Shown here: positions 12,070 through 63,271 of the stretch, one piece after another
Numbering within the stretch: the stretch's first letter is position 1
How the letters are laid out: each line of letters begins with the position of its first letter
Assembly: GCA_011774835.1 (NCBI GenBank)
Contig: JAACAK010000002.1
Coordinates: 17,685-81,684 of the forward strand
Direction: 5' to 3'
Origin: Candidatus Kutchimonas denitrificans
GTDB lineage: Bacteria > Gemmatimonadota > Gemmatimonadetes > Palauibacterales > KS3-K002
Length of the DNA: 64,000 bases
Notes under the pieces: model-generated
What the model was told of the DNA's origin: nothing
Database searches by the model: none
What the model saw: only the letters and a program-made list of their open reading frames with translations
Program-made: the position numbers and the translations under genes

Positions 12070-12108
12070 GACGTGACCTCCGTGTGATACTCATGCGTGC
12101 AAGGTAGG

Positions 12109-12965: not shown

Positions 12966-13197
12966 AAGCCCCCCCTTGCGTGGTAGATTGCAGATGGAGT
13001 GGCAATCGCTGTTGATATGATGTGACAAATTACTATCACGGCCGGCGCCTGTCAACTATCCTCCACTCGGGACACTAAGCCACTCAGAACCGCCTCTGGG
13101 CTCACAAGTACCAGCATTAGGCACGTCCGAACGCCCTGTCACCGGCGGTCTCGCGTGGTGGGGGCGCGGAGACGTCCAGGGGGTCTGACACGCAGCA

Positions 13198-25204: not shown

Positions 25205-25870
25205 TCACACCGGCCAGGCCTCTCCGTGCCAGCACATCTCCCAGAAAGCCCATTCGTAGCGGCTCGAGAGTAGGAAGGTGTTCTTCAGGCGGTCACGCTT
25301 ATCGGCGGTCGTGCCTTCGGCCAGCCGGTTCATCTCGCCTTTGAGCCAATCGGCCGCCTGGGCGAACTCCTCCGACGCGTATTGAGCGATCCAGTCGGCG
25401 TACCGTTGATCCTCCGGCCCGCCGACTTCGGCCAGGTGCTTTGCCACATGGACATAACCCCAGGCGCAAGGCAGCAGCGCCGCCACCAGATCGGCCATGT
25501 CCCCATCCGCCGCGGTGCGGACCAGGAAGTCCGTATAGGCTCGAGTGGTCGGCCACATGGGAGCGGCCTCGAGGTCGTCGGGCGACAGTCCGAACCTGGC
25601 GGCATACTGGCGGTGCAGATCCATCTCGGTGTTCAGCGTGAGGTCGAGAACCGTCGCGTACCACATCATCGATTCCAGGCGCTCGGCCTTCGCCGCCGCC
25701 CAGGCGAAGACGCGGGCGAATTCCTTCAGGTACCGATAGTCCTGCAGCACCCAGTTCGCGAATCTGTTTTCTTCCAACGAACCGTCGCCGATGCCCCGGA
25801 CGAAAGGATGTTCGAGTTGGGCGTCCCATATCGGCTCGGCGGCCGCCCGCAGCTCATCTGTGAACGCCAT
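25205..25870 (-). CDS. tenA: TenA-family thiaminase II / aminopyrimidine aminohydrolase (Cys-type)
   Basis: FTDELRAAAEPIWDAQLEHPFVRGIGDGSL, and LLPCAWGY containing the family's active-site Cys. Its start overlaps the stop of the upstream paralog (TGATG). Confidence 0.85.
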   Translation of the reverse strand: MAFTDELRAAAEPIWDAQLEHPFVRGIGDGSLEENRFANWVLQDYRYLKEFARVFAWAAAKAERLESMMWYATVLDLTLNTEMDLHRQYAARFGLSPDDLEAAPMWPTTRAYTDFLVRTAADGDMADLVAALLPCAWGYVHVAKHLAEVGGPEDQRYADWIAQYASEEFAQAADWLKGEMNRLAEGTTADKRDRLKNTFLLSSRYEWAFWEMCWHGEAWPV

Positions 25871-26535
25871 CACGCCACCTCCTCATCCAGACCCGGCCAC
25901 CCCGAACCGGTAGCCGCCATCTCCCAAAACGCCAGCTCGTATCGGGCCGTCAGCTCGAACAGGGTGGCCATCTCGCGGCGCTCGCCCGCGCCCACACCGT
26001 CTGCCAACTCGTCGAGGCTCGTCTGCAGAAAGTCGACCCACCCGCGGAACGCGTCGCTGGTCCAGTTTTCCACGAAGGGGAACCAGATCGATTCGTGATC
26101 GATCCCCGCCCGAACCACCATCCAGGAATCGTAGTAGGCCTTCTCGGCAACGTAGAGCACGGTGAATGCACCGGCGTACGATTTCGTGTAGGCGCTCGCC
26201 AGCAGGAACTGCACGTAAGCATGGTTCACGAAGGACGGTTCCACATCTTCCAGATCGACTCCCACCTTCTTCGCCCGCTCTTTAAAAAGCTCGAGCTCCT
26301 TTTCCAGAACGGGCAACGAGCCGCCCAGCGCCTGGCGATGCTCGAGCGGCGCGCGCGGCATCAGCGCGGCGATGAAGGGAATCGCCGCCTCGACGAACAG
26401 ATAGTCCTGTCGCATCCAGTTGGCGAAAGTCTCCTGCGGGATCACTCCATCCCTGGTCTGCTGGAGAAATCGGTGAGAGAGGATGCGGTCCCAGACCGGC
26501 TGTACCCGCTGCAGCTGCTCGGTGCTGAAGCCCAT
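25870..26535 (-). CDS. TenA-family protein, paralog without the active-site Cys
   Basis: 221 aa. VQPVWDRILSHRFLQQTRDGVIPQETFANWMRQDYLFV. The aligned position of the Cys motif reads VLYVAEKAYY. The ATG is preceded by GGGAG. Confidence 0.85.
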   Translation of the reverse strand: MGFSTEQLQRVQPVWDRILSHRFLQQTRDGVIPQETFANWMRQDYLFVEAAIPFIAALMPRAPLEHRQALGGSLPVLEKELELFKERAKKVGVDLEDVEPSFVNHAYVQFLLASAYTKSYAGAFTVLYVAEKAYYDSWMVVRAGIDHESIWFPFVENWTSDAFRGWVDFLQTSLDELADGVGAGERREMATLFELTARYELAFWEMAATGSGWPGLDEEVA

Positions 26536-26571: not shown

Positions 26572-26668
26572 GCCAGGGATGGGGGTGGCTGACTCCCTGC
26601 GCCGGCATTACCCGGATCAGGTTCTGAGGGTGTGATCTCAGCCGGGAGACTCCCCAGCACCCCTGTCG
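26572..26668 (-). promoter_or_regulatory. TPP (THI-box) riboswitch
   Basis: The reverse strand reads CAGGGGTGCTGGGGAGTCTCCCGGCTGAGATCACACCCTCAGAACCTGATCCGGGTAATGCCGGCGCAGGGAGTC. All THI-element hallmarks are present (GGGGUGC, GCUGAGA, ACCC, AACCUGAUCCGGGUAAUGCCGGCG, AGGGA). It lies about 40 nt upstream of the first tenA ATG. Confidence 0.85.
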
Positions 26669-26750
26669 TATGTTCGCTACTACGATAACGACCACGGGCG
26701 GCCCTGCAAGTGCTCCCGCGGTCGTCGTCGTATCCGTCTCGACTTCCGGC

Positions 26751-44461: not shown

Positions 44462-44813
44462 GCCGGCCGCTGGCCGACACGGACCACACGCTCAGTATCG
44501 ATCCGACACGTCCGGGGTTCGAGGCTCGCGAAGCGAGTCGCGTCGCACAACGTCGCAGGGTCGCCTGCGATGCGGCACCGATCTTGCCCCCGACGGAACC
44601 AAGGACTACTGACGACCGCGCTGCGGGGACCGGGTGCTCGGAGGGTCGTAGAGGGGATTTCAGCGCGCCCGGCCCCGCTTCGCGGACGGAGGCTTCGCGA
44701 CGCCTTCCGCTTCCACGGCACCGACGCGTTTGCCGCCGGGCCGCCTTCGATGATAGTATGCCATGGGAAGGCATCCCACCTGCCAGATCGGAAACCCGGA
44801 CGAAAGAGGGAGC

Positions 44814-45374
44814 ATGAGACGACGAACCCTGGCCGCTCTCGCCACGCTGCTCCTGGCGGGCGCCGCGCCGGCGTGGGCTCAGACCGGCGAGCCGCTCGAG
44901 ATCGGAGCCACGGCACCGGACTTCACCTTGCCCGGCGCCACCCGCTACGGCGTGCTGGCGGAGCCGGTGAGCCTCAGCGATTTCAAGGGCAAGACGGTGG
45001 TGCTCGCCTTCTTCTTCAAGGCCCGGACCCGTGGTTGAACGATCCAGATGCATGCGTACCGTGATCAGTACGCACAGCTATTCAACGACGGTCAGGACGT
45101 GATCCTGATCGCGATCAGCACCGACCCGGTGGAAGAGCTGTACGCGTGGGCTCGCGACGACCAGTTCCAGTTCCTGATGGCGAGCGACGCCGACGCGGAG
45201 GTGGGACGCCTTTACGGCGCTTTGGCTCGACCGGACCTAACGAATCGCAATCTGTTCGTCGTCGGACCGGACGGTAAGATCGCCTATCGGGCGGTTCCGT
45301 TCCGGGAGATCGATCCGGCGGCGTACACGGAGTTGGGCGTGGCGATCGACGAGATCCTGTCGGAGACGGAATAG
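44814..45374 (+). CDS. secreted AhpC/TSA-family peroxiredoxin with in-frame TGA (45036..45038) at the peroxidatic position; candidate selenoprotein
   Basis: ORFs 44763..45038 and 45048..45374 share one frame. The joined reading is ...FKGKTVVLAFFFKARTRG[TGA]TIQMHAYRDQY... . ATG 44814 is preceded by AGAGGGAG and encodes the signal peptide MRRRTLAALATLLLAGAAPAWAQ. Confidence 0.6.
45034..45086 (+). promoter_or_regulatory. SECIS-like stem-loop enclosing and following the TGA
   Basis: Outer helix GTTGAA (45034..45039) with TTCAAC (45081..45086). Inner 7-bp helix TGCGTAC (45053..45059) with GTACGCA (45068..45074). The 8-nt loop is CGUGAUCA. Confidence 0.45.
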
Positions 45375-45381
45375 GAGAAGG

Positions 45382-45452
45382 CGGTGTGCGGTTTGCAGTG
45401 CGCCGGTCGGCTCACGTTCACCGCAAACCGACGCACCGCAAACCGCACACCG
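45382..45452. repeat. palindromic repeat element, copy 1 (REP-like hairpin)
   Basis: CGGTGTGCGGTTTGCAGTGCGCCGG pairs with CCGACGCACCGCAAACCGCACACCG (23 of 25 positions), with a 21-nt loop. It lies between the convergent peroxiredoxin and tlpA-like genes. Confidence 0.7.
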
Positions 45453-45458
45453 TAACCC

Positions 45459-45983
45459 TCACCTGCCCGGTTCCAGTGCCTTCTCGATCGCCGCCTCGAT
45501 GTCCTGGTCTTCACCCAGACCGGTGTAGACCACCTTCCCTTCGCCGTCCAGCACGACCACATAGGACGTGGTAGGCGCCCTGAAGGCCCGCACGGCGGCG
45601 CCAGCGGCATCGTAAAACACGGGTCCCGGCATCTCGTGCTCCTCCACGTGGCGGCGCACCCGACGCGGGCTCTGGTTGACCGCCACCGCCACCACCACGA
45701 ACTGGACCGCGTCACCGTACCTGGCGCTGGCGGCCAGCATACGCGGCTCGAGCGCCGCGCAAAGCGTGCACCACGTGGCCCAGAACTCCAGCAGCACCGG
45801 CTTTCCGGTGCCGATATAACGGCCGAGATCGACCGGGTCCCCGTCGAGGTCTTCCACCCTCACCGCCTCGGGCTCGGCTCCGACGGGGAGGCCGATCACC
45901 TCCTGCGCCGACGCCGGCACGCTGGACACGAAGGGCGCGACGATCATCAAGAGCGAAAGGAGATACCATCGTAGCCCATTCAT
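45459..45983 (-). CDS. TlpA/ResA-like periplasmic thiol:disulfide oxidoreductase
   Basis: 174 aa. Signal peptide, then thioredoxin-fold active site FWATWCTLC. It starts 3 nt after the ccdA stop. Confidence 0.85.
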   Translation of the reverse strand: MNGLRWYLLSLLMIVAPFVSSVPASAQEVIGLPVGAEPEAVRVEDLDGDPVDLGRYIGTGKPVLLEFWATWCTLCAALEPRMLAASARYGDAVQFVVVAVAVNQSPRRVRRHVEEHEMPGPVFYDAAGAAVRAFRAPTTSYVVVLDGEGKVVYTGLGEDQDIEAAIEKALEPGR

Positions 45984-45986
45984 TCG

Positions 45987-46718
45987 TCACATCACCTGAC
46001 CGGCCAGGATGAAGTAATACTCAGCGACTCCGAGCATGATCAGGCCCGCCGCCTTCTTGACCCAGACCATCCACCGGCCCGAACGGGGCAGCGCCGCCAA
46101 GGCGCCGGAGAACAGCCCCACGACCACCAGCAGCGCGGTCATGCCGAGAGAGAACACGAAGAGATACAGAAACCCGAGGACGGCGCTGCCGGTTCCGGCC
46201 ACCCAGGTCAGGACGGCGGCGAAAGCCGGAGCACCGCACGGTGCGGCGACGATCCCCGAGGTCGCGCCCAGCACGAACACGGCGGGATACGAGCCGCCCC
46301 GCAACCGGGACGTCCACGCGACCAGCCGCTGCGGCGCCGACACCGGGATGACGTCCAGCATCGCCAGGCCGAAGATCAGCAGCAGGTTGCCGATCGCGAT
46401 TCGGGCCCACGGGCTGGCGCTCACGGTACCGAACAGCTGTCCGGTGAGCCCGGCGATGACGCCGAGCAGCGCGTAGAAGAGCGCCAGGCCCGAGACGTAG
46501 GTCAGCGTCAGCAGCGCGGTTCGTCGCCGCGACGCACTCTCTCCCGCCGTACCGCCGATGATACCCACGGTGATAGGAATCATCGGGTATATGCAGGGGG
46601 TGAGACTGGTCAGAACGCCGGCACCGAACAGGATCCCGAGGGCAATCAGCGGTCGGCTGGTAAGCGACTCGGTCAGCCCCTGGGCGACGGGGAGGATGGA
46701 GAGCAGTGCGTAATCCAA
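45987..46718 (-). CDS. ccdA: cytochrome c biogenesis protein CcdA / DsbD-core thiol-disulfide transporter
   Basis: Multi-TM protein with the two conserved Cys motifs (LTPCIYPMIP and VAAPCGAPAF). The track ORF start at 46778 lies inside repeat copy 2. The in-frame TTG at 46718 is my preferred but uncertain start. Confidence 0.8.
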   Translation of the reverse strand: MDYALLSILPVAQGLTESLTSRPLIALGILFGAGVLTSLTPCIYPMIPITVGIIGGTAGESASRRRTALLTLTYVSGLALFYALLGVIAGLTGQLFGTVSASPWARIAIGNLLLIFGLAMLDVIPVSAPQRLVAWTSRLRGGSYPAVFVLGATSGIVAAPCGAPAFAAVLTWVAGTGSAVLGFLYLFVFSLGMTALLVVVGLFSGALAALPRSGRWMVWVKKAAGLIMLGVAEYYFILAGQVM

Positions 46719-46751
46719 AGCGACGTGTCGAAAGTGTGCGGAGCGGTTTCG

Positions 46752-46823
46752 GTGTGCGGTCTGCGGTGCGTCGGTCACGGACCAAAACTACCGCCGCATA
46801 CCGACGCACCGCAGACCGCACAC
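46752..46823. repeat. palindromic repeat element, copy 2 (REP-like hairpin)
   Basis: GTGTGCGGTCTGCGGTGCGTCGG (46752..46774) pairs perfectly with CCGACGCACCGCAGACCGCACAC (46801..46823), with a 26-nt loop. Its arms are nearly identical to copy 1 and in the same orientation. Confidence 0.7.
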
Positions 46824-50620: not shown

Positions 50621-53600
50621 CTATTCCGGCACGATGACCCGCTCGCTGGGACCGCGGCCGAACGTTTCGGGGTGATACATCTCCTCCGCCCGGGGCGGCG
50701 GAACCATGAAGCTCCCCGGCGTCGTCGCCCGGGCCAGGTAGGAGTACGTGTATACGCCGGCGGGCAGGAGGCTGGTGAAGACCTCGGCTCGCTCGTCCCG
50801 CAGGTTCTGGTGCTCATACCAGCGCCACCAGTAGTACCAGCCGGCGCCGAACGAGACGCCCGGGGTCACCTCCGCGTCCTGGGTCTGTTGCCCCGCCAGA
50901 TCCGGGTTCAGCGCTTCGAACGCGGCGGGCAGAGGGTCGACCAGCGCCACGTGGTAGCGCCGAGCGGGCGCGGCCATGGATAGCTTCACCCTCACCCTGG
51001 CCCCGGCCCGGATGACCCAGTTGCCCCTGTCATCGCGGGTCACATCGTCGGGGTCGTCCACCGCCTCGTAGACGCGCTCGACGCCGAAGCCGTGCTCGGC
51101 GGCATCGAGCAACAGATCGGACGGTGCGTAGCGCATTCCGACCCGATAATAAAGGCGCCCGGGGCCGTCCTTGCCGAGGATCAGCGGGTTGGTATCCTCG
51201 GACGCGGTCAGCCATGCCATCGGCACCTCGATCTGATGGCGCTCGGTCGTGCGACCCCGGAACTCGTGACCTCCGGCGTAGTCATCACCCAGCCAGAGCC
51301 GGGCGATGAAATTGGGGGGCGTCCGCTCGTAGGTGGCGAAGTAACGATCGAGGGCCAACAGCACGAAGGAGTTCTCCTGGGTGTTGCCCCAGCGGCCGCG
51401 GGTTCGGTGAGCCAGGAGCCCGCGGACCAGCTTGGGGATCAGGTCGCTCTCCGGTTGATCGGCGATCAGCGCATCGAGGATCACGGCGTCCACCCGGCGG
51501 CGGGAATAGAGGAGCAGGTAATCCTCGCCGCCGTAGTCCGTCGTGAACTGGGCCGTCGCCGCGGTCTCGCTGGCCCGGTTGCCCAGGAAGCGACGCAGCG
51601 CCGCCGCGTCGTCCCGGTATTCGAGCGGCGCGTCGGCGAGCACGGACAGCAGCCAGCCGGCGGCCTCGAGGGGGAGCGTCTGGAGACCTCCGTCGCTCAC
51701 GATCGCGCGCGCCTTCGCCACGTCGGCGCCGCCTGTGAGGGCGAGGGTATACAGGGCGTACGCCTGCAGCGCCCGGCGCGTGCGCATCGAATACCGGGCC
51801 GGGATGCGGTCTTCGATGTCGTTCAGATAGCGCTGCGCCCTGCCGAGCAGCTCCTCCGGCACCGTGAACCCCTTCTCACGGGCCCGGACGAGGGCGTGCG
51901 TCACGTGAATGCTCACGTAAGGCCAGGACGCCTGTCCCGGGACGCCCCAGAACGAGAAGCCGCCGTCGCCGTTCTGCATCGACGCGAGCCGCTTGATGTC
52001 GCGCTCGACTGCGGCGACCAGCACCTCGGGCTCCGGCAGCCCCTCCGCCTCGAACGCGCCGAGCACATCGCGGAGCGCCGCGATCGCGATGATGCGGGAG
52101 GCGATCTGCTCCGCGCACGCGTACGGGTAGCTGGTGAGGTAGAGGAGCGCGTCGGTGAGCGCCTGCAGCGCGGTGGACGAGGTCGTGATCTCGAGACCGC
52201 CGTACTCGTCGATCACGTCACGCGGCGCCTCGACAGGGATGACGACGGCGCCCTGGTCGACCTCGCCGTAGGTGGCGAACGCCTCGGTCGTCGCCGGCGT
52301 CCAGACCGGCAGCGACATCTCGGCCGCGTCCCCATGCTCCGCGGTCGCCGCCGCCACCTGGAGATGCGCGGTCCCGGGTCGCACCGTGCGGGCCGGGAAG
52401 CGGACCTCCACCCTGCTCTGCCCCGGTACCTCCACCCGCTGACCGAACTCGCCGGTCAGGGTCAGGTTGGCGGCGCGGACCGCCACATCGACGCTGACCG
52501 GCGCCGACTCACGGTTCTGGATCAGGACCGGCAGCTCGAGCTTGTCGCCGAAGTTGAGGAACCGGGGCGGCGAGGGCCGGGCCATGAGCGGTAGGGACGC
52601 GGTGATCGTCGACTCGCCTTTTCCGAAACGCTTCGGCCCCCCGGCCGCGACCGCGATGACCCGGTAGCGGGTCAGGTTGTCGGGGAGCCGGACGGGCACC
52701 GAGGCACGACCCTGGTCATCGGTTCGCACCGAGCCGGCGAAGACGGCGAGGGCGGCGAAGTCGGCGCGGAGCCGGATCTCCGGCGCCGCGGCACGATCGG
52801 CTGGCGCCGCGGCCGCCTCCATCGCCATCGCTGGCTCGGCGACGCGCATCTCCTCCAGCGCCAGGGCGTCGGGCGCCAGGGCGAAGTCGACCTCTATCGT
52901 CGTGCCGGCCTCCAGCGCGAGACGCTCGAGGGCCTGACCGAATCCCAGATACTCCGCCACGACCGTGTAGACGCCGGGCTGGATGTCGGAAAGGACATAG
53001 CCGCCGTCGGCGCCGCTCAGCGTGCCCCGCCGGGTGCCTGCCAGATAGACCTGAACACCTTCGAGCGTCCTTCCCGTTTGAGCGTCGCGCACGGTCCCCC
53101 GCAGCGCGGCCGAACCCGTCGCCGTCGTGTCGACACGGGGGCCCAGGAGAACGAAGCCGCGCATCTGATAGTCGGTCACCCCATCGCCCCGGGCCGGATA
53201 GAACGTCTCCACCGGGTTCTGCAATTCCCGAGGCAACAGCGCGAGCACGGCTTCATCGATGACCGCGACGGCGACGTCGGCGTTCTCGATCGCCGTGCCG
53301 GCGGCGTCGAGCAACCGAAGATCGATCACGGTCTCGCCGCCGGGCTTCAGCTGGCGCTGTCGCGGCACCGCGGTCAACCGGAGCACGCGGGCCAGGGGTG
53401 GAATCTCCAGGTCTAGCTGCTGCGACGCCGCCAGGTTGGGGTCCGGCGGCAGCTTGCCCGAAGGCTCGGCCGGCGCGGCGGCGATGAGCTCCACGTTCAC
53501 GTGCAGATTGGGGATGTACTCCTCCAGGATCGGAACGCGAAGCACGTGCGTGGTCCCATCGACCCGGAAGCGCTCGGTTCGAACGAGCCCTTCGCGTCGC

Positions 53601-56600
53601 AGGGTGACGATCCCTTCGGCCGGGTCGTACGGCGACTGGACGAGAATTTCGGCGGTATCGCCGGGTTGATACTCATCTCGGTCGGCGATGAGCTGGATCC
53701 CCCGGTCCGGGCCGGTCCGTCCCGCACCCCCCGCGGCCCAAACGGTCAGCTCGGTCAAGCTCGGTCTGCCCTGGTCGTCCCTCACCGTGGCGCTGATCCG
53801 ATAGGCGCCGCCGCGACGGGCCCGAAACTCGCACCGTACGGGCTCGGTCTCCGAAACGACCTGGCAAGCTTGCGGCTCGCCCTCTTCCGAGACCCACGTG
53901 CCGCGACGCCAGCTCCACCGGGTTTGCACCGCCGTCAGCTCCAGCTCGCGGCCGGCGACCGGCTCGCCTTCCGGCGTTACCGCTACCGCCTCGAGGACCA
54001 GCGCCTGACCCACGCGGACGAAGCGTCGAGCGCTCCTGAGCCCGACGTAGAGACCACCGGGGTGGACGAGCAAGTCGGTAGACTCGGTCCAGGTCTGACG
54101 GTTCACATCCTGGACCGTGGCGACGGCCTGCAGCGACATCGCGACGGGCGGCACCGCCTCGAGGAACTCGACCCGCAGGTGGTGCTCGCCGTCGACGTTC
54201 GTGCGTCCGTCGAACTCTTCCACCCGGACGTCGTCCCGATCGGAGCGGTACGGTTCGAAGAACGGCCACAGCCGGGTACGACCAAAGGTGAACTCGTCCC
54301 AGCCGGGCGGTGAATAGGACGCCGGACGCGATGTGACGCGCCAATTCACGTCGCTTCCCGGCAGACCGCCCCCGGCGAAGTAGGTGGCTCGAGCCGTGAC
54401 CAGAGCGGCGCCGCCCACGAAATGTGGACCGCCGTCGTGGGTCACGCTGACCTCGTATTCGGGCCTCCGGAACTCCTGAACCTGGAAGTGGACGCGATGT
54501 ATGGCCGCCCGCTCGGCCGGTATCCCGGCGCGGCGAAGCTCGATGCGAACCGGACCCAGGGCCACATCGCCGGGCAGAGGAAAGGCACCATCGAAACCGA
54601 ACAGGTCGTTGAGATTCACCGAGCCGCGGGCGACGTCGTTTCCACGCGGGTCCACGGCCTGGTACTCGATCTCATCCCACCGCGAGGAGGGCAGGCTCAG
54701 GTCGCCGCGGGGACCTCCGCCGATCTTTCGCACCCAACCTTTGAAGTGCACGGTCTCCCCGGGTCGGTATAGGGGCCGATCGGTGAAGGCGTGAATGACG
54801 TGTCGGTCGTCGGGCGCCGCCATGACCCAGCGGCCGGCGGGAAGGAAGGCCACGTCGTCCCCGCGGCGCGCCACGAGCACCAGCGTCGCAGCGATCCGGT
54901 TCCTTCCGGGCTGGGGCAGCGCCGCCAGCCCCATCTCGTCGGTCCGGCGCCTGACAGCGCCGTCGACGAACCGCACCTCGGCACCGGAGATCGGCGCCGC
55001 ACCCTCCAGCGACGTGACCCAGGCGATCACGGAACGGTGGTCGCGTACGACGCTGAGCCCGAGGCGCGTCGCCTGCACCCACTTGAGGATCCGCTGCGGC
55101 CGCCGGCCGTCGAGCGGCGGCTCGCCGGGCTCGACATCGACGATCACATGGCCCAGACCATCGTCGAGGGCGGGGCCGAGATCGATCCGGGTCGCGGCGA
55201 TCTCGTCGGGCCCGGCGTCGATGACGACCTCCTGGTCGTGAACGAGTCGGCCGGGGGGCCCGGGCGGATCGGCCCTCCATCGGTAGCGCGCGGAGTTCAG
55301 GAAATCGGACCAGTGCCGGGGCTCGACTCGATAGAGCCGGACGCGGAGCGTCGGATGATTGACGCTCTGCACGGTCAACTCGCGGGGCGCGGCTGGATCG
55401 AGAACCACCAGATTGCCGCCGGCAGCGTTCAGGACTTTGGGATACGGTCCGACGTTGATGGTCAGGGTGGACTCGTGATCGAGACTCTGCCCGAACCAGT
55501 CGCGTATCCCGGGCTTCAGCGTGACCCGGTACCGTGTGCGTGGCCGCGACCGACCGCTGATCGAGAGGACTCTGTATGAGGCCGCCACGCGAAGGTTCGG
55601 CAACCGCGGCTCGACGCTCACCATCGACGAATCGATCGACTCAGCATCGAGCGGGTTGGAGAACTCGATCCGCCAGGCCGTTCCCGGCTCGCAGTTGCCG
55701 TGGCACTGCGCCCTGACCACGCGTAGCGGTCCGTAGGTTCGGAAATCGAAGGCCTGGGCCGTATCGGTGGTCAGCGGCCCTTCGGCCGACGGGGTGCCGG
55801 GCGGGATTCTGACCTGGACGGCCGAGTTGACCGGGAGCGGGTCGACGATACGCGCGGCCAGCCAGCGACCCTCCGGCGTTGCCTCGGTCAGTCTCTTTAC
55901 CGCGTCATCGGCCTCGATCTCGGCGGCGGTGGCCCGGCGCGTCGGCAGCGGGCCCGAGCCGGCGCTGACGACGAGGCGCGAGAGGACGGCATCGGCGTCG
56001 ATCCGCTGATCGAAGGCGAGGAAGATGATGGGCTCGAGACCCACCGGCCCCCGACGGGGATGGCTATGGACGAGGCCCGGCGGCGGCGTGCGGAAGCTCC
56101 AGCGCAGCGGCTCCGACAGCTCGGCCCCCGACGCCGATTCCACCCCGGCGCGCAGCTCGGCCCGGTAGAGGGTGGCCATGGGGAATCCTTCGTCGACCTC
56201 GAACACGAGCGTTCGGGTGCCGACCCAGCGCCAGCGGCCCTCCGGTCTCGGTCGCAATCGGACCGGGACCTGCCGGGCGCTCAGAATCTCGTGCGAGGTC
56301 ACCGGCACCATCGGGTGGTTGAAAGTGATCGCCAGTTCCCGCGCCCGCTCGACCGCGCCTTCGGGCGCGTAGCGGACGACCTCGACGGGTCCGATCTCGG
56401 TCGGGCCAGGCCGCGACAGCTCTTCCTCCGGCGGAAACTGTCCCCGCACCGTCCTGCCGGTTCGCGGCGGCGGTGGGATCTCGTCGGTGAGCGCCACCGG
56501 TCTGCCCGCTTCGTCCTCGGGGGGCAAGGGGGGCAGCGTCGTCAGGAGGTCGGCGACCCGAGCGTCGGAGAGCGCCTCGGTCTCCGGTCTGGGGATCACC

Positions 56601-56821
56601 GACACCTCGTCGCCGGGCTCGCCCTCGCTCAGGCGGAAGCGCAACCCCTCCAACGTGTCGGCCTGCACTTCGGTGAAAGGGGTGCCATCGGACGCTTCGG
56701 CCGTGCCGAACCGCGAGGTGACCATGGCCGCGCCCTGGTAGACGAGCAGCAGAGCAGCCACCAGTAGGGCGCTGACGAAGAGCAGATCGACGAAAATCCG
56801 GGAGCCAGGACGCTCTTTCAT
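50621..56821 (-). CDS. alpha-2-macroglobulin family protein (bacterial A2M, thioester-containing), N-terminally membrane anchored
   Basis: 2066 aa. N-terminal TM helix, repeated MG domains, PDNLTRYRVIAVA (A2M domain), thioester motif YPYACAEQ (CAEQ at 52106..52117), and a C-terminal receptor-binding-like domain. Confidence 0.9.
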   Translation of the reverse strand: MKERPGSRIFVDLLFVSALLVAALLLVYQGAAMVTSRFGTAEASDGTPFTEVQADTLEGLRFRLSEGEPGDEVSVIPRPETEALSDARVADLLTTLPPLPPEDEAGRPVALTDEIPPPPRTGRTVRGQFPPEEELSRPGPTEIGPVEVVRYAPEGAVERARELAITFNHPMVPVTSHEILSARQVPVRLRPRPEGRWRWVGTRTLVFEVDEGFPMATLYRAELRAGVESASGAELSEPLRWSFRTPPPGLVHSHPRRGPVGLEPIIFLAFDQRIDADAVLSRLVVSAGSGPLPTRRATAAEIEADDAVKRLTEATPEGRWLAARIVDPLPVNSAVQVRIPPGTPSAEGPLTTDTAQAFDFRTYGPLRVVRAQCHGNCEPGTAWRIEFSNPLDAESIDSSMVSVEPRLPNLRVAASYRVLSISGRSRPRTRYRVTLKPGIRDWFGQSLDHESTLTINVGPYPKVLNAAGGNLVVLDPAAPRELTVQSVNHPTLRVRLYRVEPRHWSDFLNSARYRWRADPPGPPGRLVHDQEVVIDAGPDEIAATRIDLGPALDDGLGHVIVDVEPGEPPLDGRRPQRILKWVQATRLGLSVVRDHRSVIAWVTSLEGAAPISGAEVRFVDGAVRRRTDEMGLAALPQPGRNRIAATLVLVARRGDDVAFLPAGRWVMAAPDDRHVIHAFTDRPLYRPGETVHFKGWVRKIGGGPRGDLSLPSSRWDEIEYQAVDPRGNDVARGSVNLNDLFGFDGAFPLPGDVALGPVRIELRRAGIPAERAAIHRVHFQVQEFRRPEYEVSVTHDGGPHFVGGAALVTARATYFAGGGLPGSDVNWRVTSRPASYSPPGWDEFTFGRTRLWPFFEPYRSDRDDVRVEEFDGRTNVDGEHHLRVEFLEAVPPVAMSLQAVATVQDVNRQTWTESTDLLVHPGGLYVGLRSARRFVRVGQALVLEAVAVTPEGEPVAGRELELTAVQTRWSWRRGTWVSEEGEPQACQVVSETEPVRCEFRARRGGAYRISATVRDDQGRPSLTELTVWAAGGAGRTGPDRGIQLIADRDEYQPGDTAEILVQSPYDPAEGIVTLRREGLVRTERFRVDGTTHVLRVPILEEYIPNLHVNVELIAAAPAEPSGKLPPDPNLAASQQLDLEIPPLARVLRLTAVPRQRQLKPGGETVIDLRLLDAAGTAIENADVAVAVIDEAVLALLPRELQNPVETFYPARGDGVTDYQMRGFVLLGPRVDTTATGSAALRGTVRDAQTGRTLEGVQVYLAGTRRGTLSGADGGYVLSDIQPGVYTVVAEYLGFGQALERLALEAGTTIEVDFALAPDALALEEMRVAEPAMAMEAAAAPADRAAAPEIRLRADFAALAVFAGSVRTDDQGRASVPVRLPDNLTRYRVIAVAAGGPKRFGKGESTITASLPLMARPSPPRFLNFGDKLELPVLIQNRESAPVSVDVAVRAANLTLTGEFGQRVEVPGQSRVEVRFPARTVRPGTAHLQVAAATAEHGDAAEMSLPVWTPATTEAFATYGEVDQGAVVIPVEAPRDVIDEYGGLEITTSSTALQALTDALLYLTSYPYACAEQIASRIIAIAALRDVLGAFEAEGLPEPEVLVAAVERDIKRLASMQNGDGGFSFWGVPGQASWPYVSIHVTHALVRAREKGFTVPEELLGRAQRYLNDIEDRIPARYSMRTRRALQAYALYTLALTGGADVAKARAIVSDGGLQTLPLEAAGWLLSVLADAPLEYRDDAAALRRFLGNRASETAATAQFTTDYGGEDYLLLYSRRRVDAVILDALIADQPESDLIPKLVRGLLAHRTRGRWGNTQENSFVLLALDRYFATYERTPPNFIARLWLGDDYAGGHEFRGRTTERHQIEVPMAWLTASEDTNPLILGKDGPGRLYYRVGMRYAPSDLLLDAAEHGFGVERVYEAVDDPDDVTRDDRGNWVIRAGARVRVKLSMAAPARRYHVALVDPLPAAFEALNPDLAGQQTQDAEVTPGVSFGAGWYYWWRWYEHQNLRDERAEVFTSLLPAGVYTYSYLARATTPGSFMVPPPRAEEMYHPETFGRGPSERVIVPE

Positions 56822-57012: not shown

Positions 57013-60000
57013 TCAACCCACCGCCCGGGTCACGCCAGGCCGGGTGAAGTGGAACTCGAGTCGCGTATCGCCCGCCAGCGCTCGCGCCGCCCGCAAGTAC
57101 AGAAGGGCCTGCAGCGAATAACTCGAGGCGGTGGCATCGGCCTCGTCCGCACCGATATCGTGCGTCTTGAAATCGATGATCCAATTGCACTCCGGGTCGG
57201 GCCGGAAGAGATCGAACGCCCCCACGTGCCATTTCTCGACGTCGATCAGATGGACGAACGGCAGCTCGCGATAGTGGCGCCCCTGCGTGTACCAGCGCCA
57301 CTCGTCGCTGTTCACCACCCCCTCGATCTCCCTCTCGATGTCGGCACGCAGTTCGCTGCCGCGCCGCAGCCGTTCCTCGAGCTCCGGAGACTCCAGCGCC
57401 CCGATCGTCACATCCAGCAGCTCGTCCAGCTCTTCCAGCTCCTGGATGAACTGCAGCACGTCGTGAACGATGCTGCCCCGTAGCCAGGCGGGCAGACCGC
57501 CTTTACGCGCCCGCTGCGTGAAGTAACGGTACGGCACCAGGCCCAGCACATAGCGCTCCCTCCACTCGCGGCGGCTCCGGGCCCGGGTCATCAACTCGGT
57601 GGCCGACCGCATGGTCCGCAGGCGGCGCTGGCGCAGCGGGGCGGCCAGCGGCGGCAGCGACCCGGCTTCCCGAACCGCTTCGATCCAGGTCAGCTCCGGG
57701 ACACACCGGGGCGCCGCCGGCTCGACCGGAGGCACCGCCGCGGACACGTGGACATCATCGTCGAGGCCCGCCGCCAGCCAGCGGGCGTGCCAGTTGAGAC
57801 TCCCTTCCGTTTGTCCGGCGATCACCAGCCGGTCGCGGGCGCGCGTCGTTGCCACGTACAGCAGTCGCGCCTTTTCCGCCGCCTGCTCGGCCGCTGCGCG
57901 GGCCAGCATCTCGTCCGCCCGGGGCCCCTGGTTGCCGCTCGAGGGACAGATGATCGGTCCCAATTCACGGTCGCTCCAGAACGTGTTCCACAGCCTGTGC
58001 GCCTCGTTGCTCTCCTGCGTGTCGATCAGGAAGACCACCGGCCACTCGAGCCCCTTGGCGGCGTGGATCGTGCTCAGCGTGACCACGTCGTCCTTCTTGC
58101 TGTAGAGCGGAGCTTGCGGGATCCCCAGATCCTGGGCTTCCCAACGGTTCCAGAGCTCGAGAAACGAGCTCAGCGTGTGCTCCCGATAGCCGGCGAGGAT
58201 GTGGGCGAACCGCTGTACGTTGGCCAGCTTCGACGCGGGCTGCTCCATCAGCTCCAGGTGCGCCCGATAGCCGGTCCGCTCGAGGAGCTCTTCCAGCAGG
58301 CGATCGAGGGGCCAGCGCGAGCGAAGCGGCGCGAGCTCCCGGAGGGCGCGCAGTCCGCGATCCAGCGCATCGCGCTCGATCGCCACGATCTCCGGATGCT
58401 CGGGGGCCTCGAACCAGTCGTCACGCTGCAGATAGTCCCGGGCCAGCTTCCAGAACGGCCGCCAACCGCGTGGCCCTTCCAGCTTGATTCGCGTCAGCAC
58501 CTCGTCGCGCAGCCCGACGAAAGGCGAGCGGAGGAAGGCGAAGACCTTTAGATCGTCGTTCAGGTTGTCCAGGGCCCGAAGCGCGTTGACGACGTCCATG
58601 ATCTCCAGACGGTCGTTCATGCCGGCCTCGCCGGTCAGGTAGTAGGGTACGCCGTAAGCCCACAGCGCTTCCTCGTAGGGGCCCAAGACTTTTCGCGAGT
58701 AGGACAGGACCGCCACGTCGCTGTACCGACAGGGGCGCGGGCCGCCGTCATCGCCGAAGATCTCCACGCCGGCCCGACTGCCATCGCCGGCCGGGTCGAC
58801 CATCTCGCGGAGGCGCGCGGCGATGCGACGTGCCTCAGCCTCCCGGCGTTCCGGAGCCTTCACCGCCATCGGTTCGCCGTCTTTCTTCTTCCGTGTCGGG
58901 CTCGATGACGACACCTTCAGCCATTCCACCGCGCCCGGATCCCCCTCTCGCTGCGGCACGAGGTCCGCGTACTCGACGCGTGCCGCCTCGGGTTGAGCTT
59001 CCAGCTTCGGGTCGTTCATCGCCGGCCGGCTCACCCGGTTGACGAAATCGACCACCGGACGGGTGCTGCGGAAATTCCGGGTGAGTCGAAGCGGCTCTTC
59101 AGCGTCGCAGATCTTCGCCCGCGCATCGTTCCATACCGACACGTCGGCGCCGCGGAAACGATAGATGCTCTGCTTCGGATCGCCGACCAGGAAGAGCTGT
59201 GGCGGCTCGGGCCCGTCGCGCGGCGCGGCAGTCGCGTCCAGGCCCGCGATGGCGAACGCGATGTCGCGCTGCGCGAAATCGGTGTCCTGAAACTCGTCGA
59301 TGACGATCAGCCGATAGCGTTGCCTCAGACTGGCCAGGGCGGGTCCAGCCCGCTGGGGGCCCAGCAGCCGATCTCGGGTCAGCAATATAAGGCTGTCGAA
59401 ATCGAGGGCGTTTTCGTCGGCCAGCCGCCGCTCCCAACGATCCAGCGCCATGCGGGCGAGCCGACATGCGGCGTCGGTCTGATCGAAGGCTTCATCGTCC
59501 AGCTCGTTCCAGCCGCCTGAGGCCCGGGCCAGCGCCTCGGGGTCGAGGGCGCCATCGCGGCTCCAGCTCTCGTAGCGCCGGCGGTGCCAGCGCAGATCGC
59601 GAAGCGCGGCCCGCACGAAGTCGGTGGCGCCGCTGGTGTGGGTATAGCCCCTGAAGTGGCGATCTTTGACCAGGCGAGCCGTGCCCTGATCGTCCATGTC
59701 GAGACGCTCGATGATCAGCTGGCTCACCAGCTCGTCCAGCTCGAGCTGGGCCTCGATCTCGTCCATCACCCGGAACGAAGGATCGAGGCCGAGCCGCAGG
59801 GCGTGCTCCCGGAGCAGGTCGGCGCAGAAGGAGTGGATCGTGCCGATGGAAGCGCGATCGATGCGCCAGCGCAGCGAATCGCGGCGGTCGTCGTCTTCCA
59901 GCGCTTCGATCCGCTGACGCAGCTTCCGCTTCAGATCGTAGGCCGCCTTCTCGGTGAAGGTGATCGCGGCGATCTCATCGATTTCACACGGGTCCGGATG

Positions 60001-60177
60001 CTTCGGGATCTCCTGGCCATCTTCGTCGCGGCCGACGGGCAGCCCCAGGCGCCACAAGACCTTCCCAATCACCGTGGTGGTCTTGCCGGTGCCGGCGTTC
60101 GCCTCCAGCAGGGCGTGCTCCGGGGCGCTGATGGCGCGCGCCTGCTCGAGGGTCCAGGCGAGCTCAGGCGCCGACAT
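57013..60177 (-). CDS. addA: AddA-type UvrD/PcrA-family helicase-nuclease
   Basis: Start MSAPELAWTLEQ at ATG 60177, preceded by GGGAGGG. Walker A EANAGTGKTTT, UvrD helicase motifs, and a C-terminal PD-(D/E)XK nuclease (WIIDFKT). Confidence 0.85.
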   Translation of the reverse strand: MSAPELAWTLEQARAISAPEHALLEANAGTGKTTTVIGKVLWRLGLPVGRDEDGQEIPKHPDPCEIDEIAAITFTEKAAYDLKRKLRQRIEALEDDDRRDSLRWRIDRASIGTIHSFCADLLREHALRLGLDPSFRVMDEIEAQLELDELVSQLIIERLDMDDQGTARLVKDRHFRGYTHTSGATDFVRAALRDLRWHRRRYESWSRDGALDPEALARASGGWNELDDEAFDQTDAACRLARMALDRWERRLADENALDFDSLILLTRDRLLGPQRAGPALASLRQRYRLIVIDEFQDTDFAQRDIAFAIAGLDATAAPRDGPEPPQLFLVGDPKQSIYRFRGADVSVWNDARAKICDAEEPLRLTRNFRSTRPVVDFVNRVSRPAMNDPKLEAQPEAARVEYADLVPQREGDPGAVEWLKVSSSSPTRKKKDGEPMAVKAPERREAEARRIAARLREMVDPAGDGSRAGVEIFGDDGGPRPCRYSDVAVLSYSRKVLGPYEEALWAYGVPYYLTGEAGMNDRLEIMDVVNALRALDNLNDDLKVFAFLRSPFVGLRDEVLTRIKLEGPRGWRPFWKLARDYLQRDDWFEAPEHPEIVAIERDALDRGLRALRELAPLRSRWPLDRLLEELLERTGYRAHLELMEQPASKLANVQRFAHILAGYREHTLSSFLELWNRWEAQDLGIPQAPLYSKKDDVVTLSTIHAAKGLEWPVVFLIDTQESNEAHRLWNTFWSDRELGPIICPSSGNQGPRADEMLARAAAEQAAEKARLLYVATTRARDRLVIAGQTEGSLNWHARWLAAGLDDDVHVSAAVPPVEPAAPRCVPELTWIEAVREAGSLPPLAAPLRQRRLRTMRSATELMTRARSRREWRERYVLGLVPYRYFTQRARKGGLPAWLRGSIVHDVLQFIQELEELDELLDVTIGALESPELEERLRRGSELRADIEREIEGVVNSDEWRWYTQGRHYRELPFVHLIDVEKWHVGAFDLFRPDPECNWIIDFKTHDIGADEADATASSYSLQALLYLRAARALAGDTRLEFHFTRPGVTRAVG

Positions 60178-63100
60178 CGAACCGCCCTCCCTTCTCGTAG
60201 CCCGCGTTCGAGCGTCGGACCTCGAGCCCCGGCTCCCACCACGCCCAGTCGCCGGCGGATTTGGCACGCTTCAGCTCGAACCGGCCGGCACGAACCCGTT
60301 CGGGGATGGTGAGGGCGATGGCCAGGGCGCGCTCGAAATCCTCGCTTCCCCACTCGACTACGCTCTTGTCCCTGGCCCGGCCATTCTTCTTCAAGGTGCG
60401 GTAGCGACCGCGGCGGACGTCCGCCCCGGCGGCCCCCACCCGCTCCCGTGCCTCCTGCATTACCGCCATCTCGGACAGCGCTTTCATATAGAGCGGGGTC
60501 TGCACCGCCACGCCGTCGGCGTAGCCTTTGGTGCCCGGCACGTTCCCGCTCTTGTAGTCGAGTATCGAGCAGACCGCCGTGTCATCGTCCAGTTCCAGGT
60601 CGACCCGATCGATGCGGCCCCGCACCGAGATGGTCCGCTCCATACCGGCGACGTCGCGGCCACGGATCGCCAACACCTCATCGGAACCGAAGGAGAGTTC
60701 GCAGCGGAACGGACGTTCACCGGTCTCCGCCATCTGCTCGAGCTCGATGCGGAGATAGTCCAGCAGCTCTTCGCGAAGCGTCTCCCGGGTAATCGCCCAG
60801 AGGGCTGCCAGCCCGACCCACTCACGTTGAGCTCCCTGGCGCTCGAGCCGTTTCTTGCAGACTCGCTCGAACGTCTCCTCGAAGACCTGCTTCGCCCGGT
60901 CGTCCAGGGACGGGGGCAGGTCGTCCAGGACGGTCTCGTAGAACGCCTGGAGCACGTCGTGAGCCACGCCGCCATAGGTCAGCCGCGTGGTCTCCTCCTC
61001 CGCCTCCTGCCGCACGCTGAGGCGAAGGACCCGGCCGACCAGAAAGAGGAAGGGCGACGAGGCGTAGCGCTCCAGCGCGCTGGCCGACCAAGCGTAGTCG
61101 GAGTCGAACCAGCGCTCGAGACGGGCCAGCACCTCGGGGTCGCGGATGGCGCCGGTCCATGGGTGGAGGGTTTCGGCCTCCACGCCCGGGCCGGGGCGAC
61201 GTCGAGTCTCGACGGCGGCGTTGAGGATGCCCTGCTTGAGCGTGAGCGGATCGACCACCTCGATCGCCGGTTGCTTCCCTTCCCGCTTCGCCTTCGCCAG
61301 CGCTTTCGCCGCCCGCTGGCGAACCTGGCCCGGGGCCAGTGGTGGATCCGGAACGAAGCGGGTGCGCGGGATCTCCTCGGTCTCATCGTGTCGGGGAACG
61401 AGCAACGAGGGGAGGAGCGGCGTGCCGCGGGAATCCGCGGTTCGGTACGTGATCACCGTGTGGGGACCGGCGGTGACCGCCTGCCAGAGCCGGCGCTCCC
61501 GGGCCAGGGCCCGGTCGGGATCCGAGAGCGGCAGGCCCAGCTCGACCAGACGGGTCCGTTCCTCGTCGGAGAAGATGCTCCCCGGCGCCCATCGTCTGGG
61601 GAACGCGCCATCGTTGGCATGGATCAGGAACGTGTGCTCGAAGGGGAAAGTCGCGGCCTCGTGGGCTTCGAGAACCTGCACACCGCTTCGGAGCGGCGTC
61701 GAGACCCCGATCTCGTTGCTCTCGAGGAAGCGACGCAACCGCGCGTACCAATCCTTCGGTCCCAACTCATCGGCCGCGTCCGCGTCCGGCCAGTCGCCCA
61801 GCATCCGGGTCAGCGCCTCGACGCCCTGCTGATCGAGGCGAACGATCTCATGGTCGAGCCCATCGGCAGCGCACAGCTCCTCGCGATAATCGAACAGGTC
61901 GCCGGATAGCAGCCTGCGGGTCTCCTCGATCCAGGCGGCGGTCGGCCGCCGCAGATCGAGCGGGCGGGCCACGTTTCGAAACGCTTCGAACCGCTCGCAA
62001 ACATCGCGCATTCGATCGGCGAAGATGCCGTCCGCGTGCAGCGGCACCCAGCCGCTGTCCTCCTTCTCCGCCCGCTCCTCCTGCCGTTCGACCTCCGCCT
62101 GCAGATCACAGAGAGAGAACAACCAGTCGTCCAGCCCTTCGGTCGCCTGCACGCAGGCGAGATGGTCGATGGGGACCCGATCGATGCCGAGCTTGAAGTA
62201 GGCGCTCTCCAGCACGGCGCGCAGCGCCGGATAGCTCCAGTTCCGGGCGGCGCCCCGGAAATAGCTCAGGACCGCCTTGAGGGCGGGCACCTCGCTGAGG
62301 CGGCTCCGCAGTCGCGCCGTGGTCGGAATACCCGCCGCCCGCAACACCCGCAGGGCGTGCCCTGAGTCCTCGCGCCCGGTACGAACGACGATGGCGATCC
62401 GCCGGGGATCCACGGCGTCCTCGACCAGAAGCGTCTTGATTCGCCCGGCCACCCACTCCAGCTCGCGTTGCCCGTCGGGTGCCGGCTGCACCACCGGCAC
62501 CGCGAGCGAATCGCCTCCGATGTGCTCCTCGTCTCCTTCGAACTCGGGCTGTTGCGTGTCCAGCTCCGGAAGCAGGTAGAGAACGACCTCGACATCCGTT
62601 TGAGCCGCCAGCGCCTCCAGCAGCTGGCCACGCGTGCGGCGCGAAACCAGCCCGTAGACGTGAAGGCGGCTGGCGCCGCGCAGCGCGACGCCGAGGCCGC
62701 CGGCCATCACACGGTCCGCCACCAGCGCGTGCACCTGGCGCGGATCGTAATAGCCCAGCTCGTCCAGCTGGCGGAGATAATCGCGATACGTCGCGACGAC
62801 CCACCCGTTACGGCGCCCCGACCAGTCATCGCTCACCACTTCTTCCGCCGTCGCTCGCAGCTCGTCGGGCGCGACGTCCTCGGGCAAGAGCTCCCCGAAC
62901 AGCGAGTCCAGCGCCTGCACGATCCCCCCTCGATCGGGATCGTCGGCCCCGTCGAGGCCGTACTCGGCCGCACGCGCCGCGCCCAGGCCACCGATCAGCG
63001 ACCGCCGACGCATGAGCCCGATGGGACGGCTCTCGAGGCCGAACAGCTCGGGGAGATCGGAAAGGAAGGCGACGGGCGGCGCCAGCCAGCCCCGCGAGCC

Positions 63101-63271
63101 GACCTCGGCCGCCGCCCGGTACAGTGCCTCCCGCTGAACCCGATGGGTCAGCCACAGATACGACGGGTAGCCCTCCGGACCGGCCGCGCCGTTCAGTTCA
63201 TCGAGGAAGCGCCGAACCAGTTCATCCCACAGTCGAGGGCTCGTCGACGCGCGTACGAGGTGGAGTGTCAA
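60164..63271 (-). CDS. addB: AddB-like helicase-nuclease subunit (PD-(D/E)XK nuclease, degenerate helicase-like N-terminal domains)
   Basis: 1035 aa with a TTG start. C-terminal nuclease motifs GRIDRVD...ILDYKSG...QTPLYMKAL. It overlaps addA by 14 nt, in the classic addB-addA order. Confidence 0.75.
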   Translation of the reverse strand: MTLHLVRASTSPRLWDELVRRFLDELNGAAGPEGYPSYLWLTHRVQREALYRAAAEVGSRGWLAPPVAFLSDLPELFGLESRPIGLMRRRSLIGGLGAARAAEYGLDGADDPDRGGIVQALDSLFGELLPEDVAPDELRATAEEVVSDDWSGRRNGWVVATYRDYLRQLDELGYYDPRQVHALVADRVMAGGLGVALRGASRLHVYGLVSRRTRGQLLEALAAQTDVEVVLYLLPELDTQQPEFEGDEEHIGGDSLAVPVVQPAPDGQRELEWVAGRIKTLLVEDAVDPRRIAIVVRTGREDSGHALRVLRAAGIPTTARLRSRLSEVPALKAVLSYFRGAARNWSYPALRAVLESAYFKLGIDRVPIDHLACVQATEGLDDWLFSLCDLQAEVERQEERAEKEDSGWVPLHADGIFADRMRDVCERFEAFRNVARPLDLRRPTAAWIEETRRLLSGDLFDYREELCAADGLDHEIVRLDQQGVEALTRMLGDWPDADAADELGPKDWYARLRRFLESNEIGVSTPLRSGVQVLEAHEAATFPFEHTFLIHANDGAFPRRWAPGSIFSDEERTRLVELGLPLSDPDRALARERRLWQAVTAGPHTVITYRTADSRGTPLLPSLLVPRHDETEEIPRTRFVPDPPLAPGQVRQRAAKALAKAKREGKQPAIEVVDPLTLKQGILNAAVETRRRPGPGVEAETLHPWTGAIRDPEVLARLERWFDSDYAWSASALERYASSPFLFLVGRVLRLSVRQEAEEETTRLTYGGVAHDVLQAFYETVLDDLPPSLDDRAKQVFEETFERVCKKRLERQGAQREWVGLAALWAITRETLREELLDYLRIELEQMAETGERPFRCELSFGSDEVLAIRGRDVAGMERTISVRGRIDRVDLELDDDTAVCSILDYKSGNVPGTKGYADGVAVQTPLYMKALSEMAVMQEARERVGAAGADVRRGRYRTLKKNGRARDKSVVEWGSEDFERALAIALTIPERVRAGRFELKRAKSAGDWAWWEPGLEVRRSNAGYEKGGRFDVGA

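Follow-up and report, generated by a model that had tools for sequence, protein, structure and literature searches.

The window analysed here, a 64,000-nucleotide stretch of DNA from Candidatus Kutchimonas denitrificans (phylum Gemmatimonadota; assembly GCA_011774835.1, contig JAACAK010000002.1, forward-strand positions 17,685 to 81,684), contains a peroxiredoxin gene that is interrupted by an in-frame TGA codon. Two open reading frames (ORFs), 44763..45038 and 45048..45374, are parts of this single gene, which very probably encodes an exported, BCP/PrxQ-like 1-Sec peroxiredoxin whose catalytic selenocysteine (Sec) would be specified by UGA. The ORFs lie in the same frame and, as read from the sequence, are separated by the TGA at 45036-45038 and the three sense codons ACG ATC CAG, in full agreement with the original prediction made from the letters of the window. 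Read through the TGA, the peptide is ...VVLAFFFKARTRG*TIQMHAYRDQYAQLF..., or in a longer version ...KGKTVVLAFFFKARTRG-[TGA]-TIQMHAYRDQYAQLF.... The candidate selenocysteine peroxiredoxin proposed in that prediction is favoured by the residue found in homologs at the TGA column, by conservation of the TGA itself, and by comparisons of a downstream selenocysteine insertion sequence (SECIS) hairpin.

The Pfam model PF00578 (AhpC/TSA) matches the read-through product, with TGA read as Cys, over residues 30-158 and hence across the TGA (98.3 bits, cutoff 26). The active-site architecture first recognized from the sequence, that of AhpC/TSA/Bcp proteins with the stop codon in place of the peroxidatic Cys (T-R-G-U), is borne out by this match and by alignment of the Thr and Arg residues with BCP structures. 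The ATG at 44814, which the original start coordinate had implied, is the likely start of the gene and is preceded by a purine-rich stretch at 44803-44812. Automatic annotation had been expected to split the locus. In assembly GCA_012974725.1 (contig JABAHQ010000257.1) the gene is indeed called as fragments of 74 and 108 amino acids, and none of the NCBIfam models covers the TGA-type clade. Taken literally, such calls would mean two separate products, a secreted N-terminal peptide of 74 residues and a 108-residue protein initiated at ATG 45048. This ATG exists and is used by gene callers, and on any selenoprotein mRNA some ribosomes are expected to stop at the UGA instead of inserting Sec. However, the split would fall in the middle of the thioredoxin-fold domain, between the active-site loop and the helix; Met 45048 is the conserved M of a TIQM motif that uninterrupted Cys homologs share; its codon has no ribosome-binding site in front of it; and the C-terminal piece would have neither signal peptide nor catalytic residue. 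Two independent products are considered exceedingly improbable.

A protein search returned thousands of homologs, of which the best 120 were aligned; most are full-length at about 195 residues and 55-74% identical, with full-length Cys homologs of this size showing 60-74% identity to the read-through product. The TGA column is occupied by Cys in 115 of 119 aligned homologs, within the motif FFPxARTxGC-TIQM..YRDQY, and the peroxidatic Cys therefore falls exactly where the original prediction had placed it. The four homologs with another residue at this position (L, L, W, and V) are exactly those that share the FFFKAR of the query, in which Phe replaces the conserved Pro. For the protein with W, P0014 from JGI, the underlying DNA has TGA, and the gene caller had used a code in which TGA is read as Trp. 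This gene call (L001:548-1120, JGI Ga0633609_0330342) passes through both the Sec-UGA and the true TGA stop as Trp, and it seems that a selenoprotein gene led the caller to adopt another genetic code for this short contig. One of the proteins with L, P0011, has the codon TTA, which differs from TGA by a single base; the coverage of its contig is 1.6x. The other two FFFKAR-type proteins, P0087 and P0113, have Leu and Val at the Sec column in protein records only; Val (GTN) is two changes from TGA. Protein databases are biased in this respect, since TGA genes cannot appear there as full-length proteins, and DNA is needed to assess the column.

Conservation of the TGA was assessed in two surveys of DNA. 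The first scanned metagenome DNA with the degenerate pattern FFFKARTxG-NNN-T[x]QM, in which the critical codon was left free, and yielded at least 120 contigs; among the metagenome contigs listed, the free codon is TGA in 120/120. The second used the read-through protein as query against GTDB genomes, one for each species, and kept the best 80 loci, all of which come from metagenome-assembled genomes (MAGs) of Gemmatimonadota (Gemmatimonadales and Longimicrobiales). The column holds TGA in 79 of these best 80 loci and TGC in the remaining one, from a Gemmatimonas sp. One of the 80 carries two TGA-type genes. A complete MAG chromosome, CP070812.1, has a TGA-type gene at locus L132. Two TGA-type paralogs (L164:10210 and L164:14924; FFFK...U and FFYK...U) lie 4.7 kb apart on one contig of the Gemmatimonadales MAG MFD04944.bin.1.29, and both have the full hairpin. 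In another Gemmatimonadales MAG, SMAG_U12473, a second in-frame stop occurs at the Phe/Tyr codon (L201:3157-3180; AFF*KARTKG*). This copy, the sole broken one among about 200, is a genuine pseudogene or else the result of misassembly.

Translation evidently continues beyond the TGA in the lineage. The frame remains open for 108-122 codons past the TGA in all 114 metagenome contigs that are long enough. The ratio of nonsynonymous to synonymous substitution (dN/dS) is about 0.17 upstream and about 0.24 downstream of the TGA (ungapped Nei-Gojobori method, 107 distinct sequences, median amino acid identity 72%), the downstream value being inflated by unmodelled indels. As judged from these comparisons, the region after the TGA is under purifying selection. 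A pseudogene, or a sequencing or assembly error in which a Cys codon (TGC or TGT) has mutated to or been misread as TGA and left two dead fragments, might be suspected for a source that is a metagenome-assembled genome annotated as two fragments, the more so as defects occur in two relatives, the extra stop of L201 and the TTA of L002 at 1.6x coverage. Yet the TGA recurs at the same codon in 120/120 and 79/80 independent assemblies, drawn from many studies, the downstream frame is intact and constrained, and the hairpin is under selection at the nucleotide level. This explanation is effectively refuted already and retains almost no probability. The code is likewise not reassigned. Among ordinary stops in the window TGA is the most frequent, ending 26 of 42 predicted genes, and it also ends 44 genes of the family; recoding is therefore specific to the site. 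Terminal TGA is used in 44/195 Sec-peroxiredoxin genes (23%) as against 62% of the window genes, as raw percentages. A second UGA may be disfavoured in an mRNA engaged by SelB, which would account for the low share.

A stem-loop at the distance expected of a bacterial SECIS (bSECIS) element had been noted downstream of the TGA, and it is present, agrees with the published bSECIS model, and is conserved both at wobble positions and by covariation. The hairpin begins 14 nt after the UGA. With the T of TGA numbered 0, the stem occupies +17..+23/+32..+38 and the loop +24..+31. The 7-bp helix with its loop CGUGAUCA belongs to the minimum-free-energy fold of 45030-45095 (-19.5 kcal/mol). Compared with the bSECISearch consensus (PMC13188914 Fig. 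2A), the loop has 8 nt (3-9 nt in the model), the upper stem 7 bp (4-16 bp), the distance from UGA to loop is 21 nt, 45039-45059 (16-37 nt), and the 22-nt hairpin alone has an energy of -8.6 kcal/mol (-7.5 or lower). The model also calls for a G at one of the two leading loop positions, with G or U as the usual next base (PMC13188914). In the loop found here, C-G-U-G-A-U-C-A, the second base is an invariant G, and the U next to it is retained by at least 98% of unique sequences.

Among 106 distinct metagenome sequences, the six wobble positions within the hairpin (GCG TAC CGT GAT CAG TAC) are 98-100% invariant, and the invariant codons include the GC-poor CGT and GAT despite a genome of 66% GC. 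Wobble sites outside the hairpin show entropies of 1.0-1.7 bits. Two wobble positions form the closing pair, +17/+38, and this pair covaries, being U-A in 65 sequences, C-G in 63, G-C in 20, A-U in 1 and mismatched in 1 (150-sequence alignment A1). The stem is paired in 99.9% of cells. In covariation score and in percentage of cells paired, the tested structure, which included an outer helix, was equalled by none of 500 shuffles and by no slid register. This outer helix, proposed at 45034-45039/45081-86 and containing the UGA, can form in the window; the comparisons lend it no support as a conserved feature. In relatives only its 4-bp UGAA/UUCA core recurs, without compensatory change, and it is not counted as part of the element because its bases are fixed by coding (the TGA, ACN, and the TTC Phe codon) and show no covariation. 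No Rfam family matches the window at gathering thresholds, and a permissive search of 44900-45200 gave only chance microRNA hits with E values of about 6-7. When the same hairpin was sought in other places by fuzzy matching, only peroxiredoxin genes and their Cys relatives came up.

Relatives that encode Cys serve as controls for the hairpin. Cys-type genes P0013 (which has an identical AYRDQYA), P0001, P0027, and the Gemmatimonas locus L179 encode the same or nearly the same peptide with the codons GCC/CAG, CGC/CGG, GAC, and TAT, and are unable to fold into the hairpin (-0.5 to -2.6 kcal/mol). Three of the Cys-type genes without the hairpin are distant ones, with a similar or identical peptide.

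Family statistics were compiled for 202 TGA-type genes in loci L001-L205, 201 of which could be scored for the Pro and Thr positions of the motif PxxxTxxC/U. The Thr of TxxU is kept in 194/201, and the Arg motif in 173/179. The Pro position is occupied by F in 172, Y in 28, V in 1, and P in none of the 201 TGA-type genes; among Cys-type relatives it is P in 113/115. No cysteine at all is found in 182/182 complete TGA-type members, whereas 114/115 Cys-type relatives contain a single Cys, the peroxidatic one. Signal-like N-termini were detected in 110 of 179 complete family members by a simple, crude heuristic.

Several of the observations weigh against a selenoprotein. The canonical Pro of PxxxTxxU is missing; this marks a variant and leaves unaffected the TxxU definition used in family tables. 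The single-sequence fold of the hairpin is no better than chance (z = -1.43, equalled by 17/200 shuffles), and support for the hairpin is for this reason comparative and not thermodynamic. Six of the seven stem pairs are invariant, so that covariation amounts to one pair together with wobble-site invariance; the six are neutral for covariation, and wobble invariance is the evidence for them. The hairpin is also not strictly exclusive to TGA genes. In the closest Cys-type lineage, FFPRARTAG-C (P0002, P0010, and P0004), it is intact or slightly decayed (-9.4, -6.9, and -6.7 kcal/mol), always with the loop CGCGAUCA as against CGUGAUCA (loci L208-L210, L213, and L214). These Cys forms nest among Sec forms in a rough neighbor-joining tree (midpoint-rooted, BLOSUM distances). 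The simplest reading is that their hairpin would be a SECIS relic of a recent conversion from Sec to Cys, with the active-site Pro regained; a pre-adapted ancestor is the alternative.

The remaining points of this kind concern the Sec machinery. No tRNA-Sec, selA, selB, or selD was found in the 64-kb window (ARAGORN, and Pfam on 40 of 44 predicted genes), nor was a tRNA-Sec (ARAGORN, 211 loci) or any selA, selB, or selD found in 1.84 Mb of related flanks. SelA, SelB, and SelD were sought by tblastn with E. coli probes validated against NCBIfam, and the sole match was the TypA GTPase of the window. The lack of sel genes in the flanks is unsurprising because all of them sample the same neighbourhood. 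A Sec trait in Gemmatimonadota is not recorded in the searchable literature, and neither is a link of the phylum to selD or selenophosphate. It is mostly because this machinery is unconfirmed that confidence in the selenoprotein is not set higher. ARAGORN did report an 89-nt tRNA-Ala (ggc), which is not a tRNA-Sec, at 18913-19001 (+). This call lies within ORF 18777-19142, directly behind the gene of an ECF sigma factor (18212-18784), and is probably a false positive in view of its length and its position in coding sequence. A second selenoprotein was not found, the screen of in-frame TGAs flanked by coding sequence with high GC content at third codon positions (GC3) being swamped by gene junctions and antisense frames. 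The SECIS loop itself (45060-45067) holds the palindrome TGATCA, which gives an antisense TGA and thereby a recurring AY*SRYA artefact in this screen. FdhF-like genes in L069 and L144 were considered as further selenoproteins and rejected, as they have Cys at the FdhF Sec column.

Hosts without Sec machinery could also read the UGA by other means. A hairpin might stimulate read-through with insertion of a standard, near-cognate amino acid (Trp, Cys, or Arg), a possibility to which the missing machinery in the window and related flanks, the unrecorded Sec trait of the phylum, and the conserved downstream structure, equally expected for programmed read-through, all lend some weight. The recoded site is, however, the column of the catalytic Cys, with Thr and Arg kept around it, and the enzyme would be inactivated by Trp or Arg at this place. 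TGC and TGT would be one mutation away if read-through served to insert Cys, yet TGA is kept in 199 of about 200 close relatives. The hairpin, moreover, matches the geometry and loop rule of SelB-type bSECIS elements, and a Sec/Cys pair with a SECIS and TGA-containing homologs is the accepted signature of a high-confidence selenoprotein (PMC13188914). Read-through with a standard residue is judged very unlikely. The same low probability attaches to a recoding of UGA outside any canonical Sec system, in which GCGUAC-CGUGAUCA-GUACGC would drive a Gemmatimonadota-specific event that inserts another residue or follows a divergent, SelB-independent route. Sec insertion as preferred here rests on the comparative signature, that is, the Sec/Cys pair, the conserved TGA, the conserved bSECIS, and purifying selection downstream, which is not proof.

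Sec-containing peroxiredoxins (TxxU, COG1225) are established and have been known since 2001-2005, and the statement in the original prediction that Sec and Cys interchange in peroxiredoxins accords with PrxU and with the peroxiredoxin selenoproteins of published surveys. The Sargasso Sea set contributed 43 such sequences (PMC1088965), a 2016 count recorded peroxiredoxin selenoproteins in 78 bacterial genomes (PMC5029168), and the family is also covered in the review PMC13188914. The present gene falls within the operational definition of the family by its PF00578 domain, TxxU motif, Sec/Cys pair, and bSECIS. With other members of the Sec-peroxiredoxin family (PF00578/COG1225 Bcp, TxxU) it shares the AhpC/TSA fold, UGA at the peroxidatic Cys, the conserved Arg, a bSECIS hairpin directly 3' of the UGA, and widespread Cys homologs. 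It differs in having F, Y, or V in place of Pro, where PxxxTxxU is described as highly conserved in Sec-peroxiredoxins (PMC13188914), and in its signal peptide, the lack of any other Cys, and linkage to CcdA and TlpA-like genes. The lineage is confined to Gemmatimonadota in the sample, the published marine Sec-peroxiredoxin set having been compared by description only.

The sole experimentally verified precedent for the proposed chemistry is PrxU of Eubacterium acidaminophilum, purified in 2001 (Sohling et al., cited in PMC13188914), in which Sec likewise replaces the peroxidatic Cys. PrxU belongs to another peroxiredoxin subfamily and is a cytoplasmic protein of a strict anaerobe with a model of about 233 positions, whereas the protein described here is shorter, predicted to be exported, and BCP-like. 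With the NCBIfam equivalog model NF040737 (peroxi_PrxU) the protein reaches 49.5 bits where the cutoff is 270, and it is therefore not a PrxU ortholog. NF006960, the Bcp equivalog for thioredoxin-dependent thiol peroxidase, scores 66.1 bits against a cutoff of 140. The protein is BCP-like but lies outside the curated Bcp equivalog, and it is not named by any curated model. Among solved structures, its nearest matches are the archaeal BCP/PrxQ enzymes 2ywn and 2cx3 and Mycobacterium tuberculosis AhpE (1xvw), about 30% identical over the whole domain. Their Thr, Cys, and Arg positions correspond to T72, U75, and R145, and they are 1-Cys enzymes, as are the Cys-type orthologs of the family. They differ in having Cys, the canonical Pro, and a cytoplasmic location, and none is a selenoprotein. 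The SECIS of E. coli fdhF is also a hairpin within the coding region that closely follows the UGA, and the present element resembles it in loop, stem, G-U, and spacing within the model. It has no sequence similarity to fdhF-type elements, no Rfam match, and no bulged U that could be identified. Its 20-nt core (GCGUAC, loop, GUACGC) is nearly invariant in the lineage, which is unusual, as bSECIS elements are generally variable. On sequence comparisons, the [F/Y]xxxTxxU motif, predicted export, linkage to CcdA and TlpA, the near-invariant SECIS core, and distribution across Gemmatimonadota appear to be traits specific to this lineage.

The Gemmatimonadota are a mostly aerobic soil phylum. It is moderately probable that these genes constitute a distinct, phylum-wide family of exported [F/Y]xxxTxxU 1-Sec peroxiredoxins, in which the change from Pro to an aromatic residue is mechanistically coupled to Sec, and that they reveal a pervasive and previously unreported Sec trait in this phylum. 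A distinct 1-Sec family of this kind is much more probable than non-canonical recoding. Coordinates of the gene, its active-site codons, the hairpins, and the adjacent genes are collected in Table 1.

Table 1. Features of the probable Sec-peroxiredoxin locus, in positions of the window.
Feature	Position	Strand	Remarks
Shine-Dalgarno-like purine-rich stretch aaagagggag	44803..44812	+	just 5' of ATG 44814; putative, from sequence reading
Read-through coding sequence of peroxiredoxin	44814..45374	+	186 codons and TAG stop, Sec at residue 75; same-frame ORFs
Predicted signal peptide MRRRTLAALATLLLAGAAPAWA	44814..44879	+	cleavage after AWA, next residue Q; sequence reading
Phe68 codon, at the canonical Pro of PxxxTxxC/U	45015..45017	+	opposite Pro of BCP AFYPAAFTQVC (PDB alignment)
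Thr72 of TxxU (T72-R-G-U75)	45027..45029	+	aligned to catalytic Thr of BCP structures
In-frame UGA, predicted Sec codon (U75)	45036..45038	+	peroxidatic-Cys column
Bacterial SECIS hairpin	45053..45074	+	7-bp stem 45053-45059/45068-45074, 8-nt loop CGUGAUCA 45060-45067
Arg145, conserved peroxiredoxin active-site Arg (TNRNLFVV)	45246..45248	+	aligned to conserved Arg of BCP structures
Long stable hairpin between convergent peroxiredoxin and thioredoxin genes	45382..45452	.	-52.1 kcal/mol, z = -7.4, 0/200 shuffles
Exported TlpA/ResA-like thioredoxin, WCTLC	45459..45983	-	Pfam Redoxin, AhpC-TSA, and Thioredoxin matches
CcdA/DsbD-type membrane electron transporter, DsbD_TM	45987..46778	-	PF02683, 161.9 bits

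Just past the peroxiredoxin gene, on the opposite strand, are genes for a TlpA-like thioredoxin and a CcdA-type transporter, and their linkage to it is conserved. Both lie within 3 kb of the Sec-peroxiredoxin gene in 59 of 74 evaluable loci, and the same pair also flanks Cys-type orthologs. The stable hairpin between the convergent genes, a 15-16 bp inverted repeat, takes up most of the 84-nt intergenic gap; it has no T-run and was missed by a simple terminator scan, and is probably a bidirectional terminator.

These features suggest a route from mRNA to enzyme. The UGA at 45036 would be decoded as Sec, with SelB carrying Sec-tRNA(Sec) tethered by the hairpin 45053-45074, as the sequence signature implies, and the 186-residue precursor would be exported by means of its N-terminal signal peptide. 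In the periplasm the U75 selenolate would attack peroxide and become a selenenic acid, Thr72 and Arg145 serving to position and activate U75. Since the protein has no cysteine of its own, it would be a 1-Sec enzyme recycled by an external dithiol. CcdA and TlpA are a standard route of reducing equivalents to the periplasm, and on these grounds the adjacent pair is proposed as the recycling path. The TlpA-like thioredoxin may reduce the oxidised selenoenzyme and CcdA may in turn keep the thioredoxin reduced with cytoplasmic electrons, an arrangement suggested by synteny.

Elsewhere the window contains a number of other recognizable features. A thiamine pyrophosphate (TPP) riboswitch (RF00059, 68.3 bits) at 26577-26674 (-) lies upstream of tandem TenA/THI-4 genes at 25870-26535 and 25205-25873 (-). 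A bacterial alpha-2-macroglobulin of 2066 residues is encoded at 50621-56821 (-), an AddAB-like helicase-nuclease pair (UvrD and PD-(D/E)XK) at 57013-63271 (-), and an ATP-dependent DNA ligase at 13198-14733 (-). Within 11132-13198, no ORF shows the strong GC3 bias that marks the remaining genes of the window.

The finding does not overturn current understanding, in which Sec-peroxiredoxins are established. It bears on a lineage whose genes are at present split into fragments or read with the wrong code, and which extends to at least 79 species genomes of Gemmatimonadota and to over 120 metagenome contigs, with soil as the source of many. A curated protein model combined with the SECIS signature would mend these annotations and would flag the MAGs concerned as Sec users. 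Sec is strictly coupled to loss of the supposedly invariant Pro of the active site, and Cys-type sister lineages seem to have regained Pro and to carry decaying SECIS relics; this would offer a natural experiment on the further changes that an exchange of Cys and Sec demands of an active site. More broadly, the family implies that selenium dependence for periplasmic peroxide defence may be widespread in the Gemmatimonadota, an abundant soil phylum undiscussed in the searchable selenoproteome literature, and the availability of selenium in soil would thereby be tied to the oxidative-stress tolerance of these bacteria.

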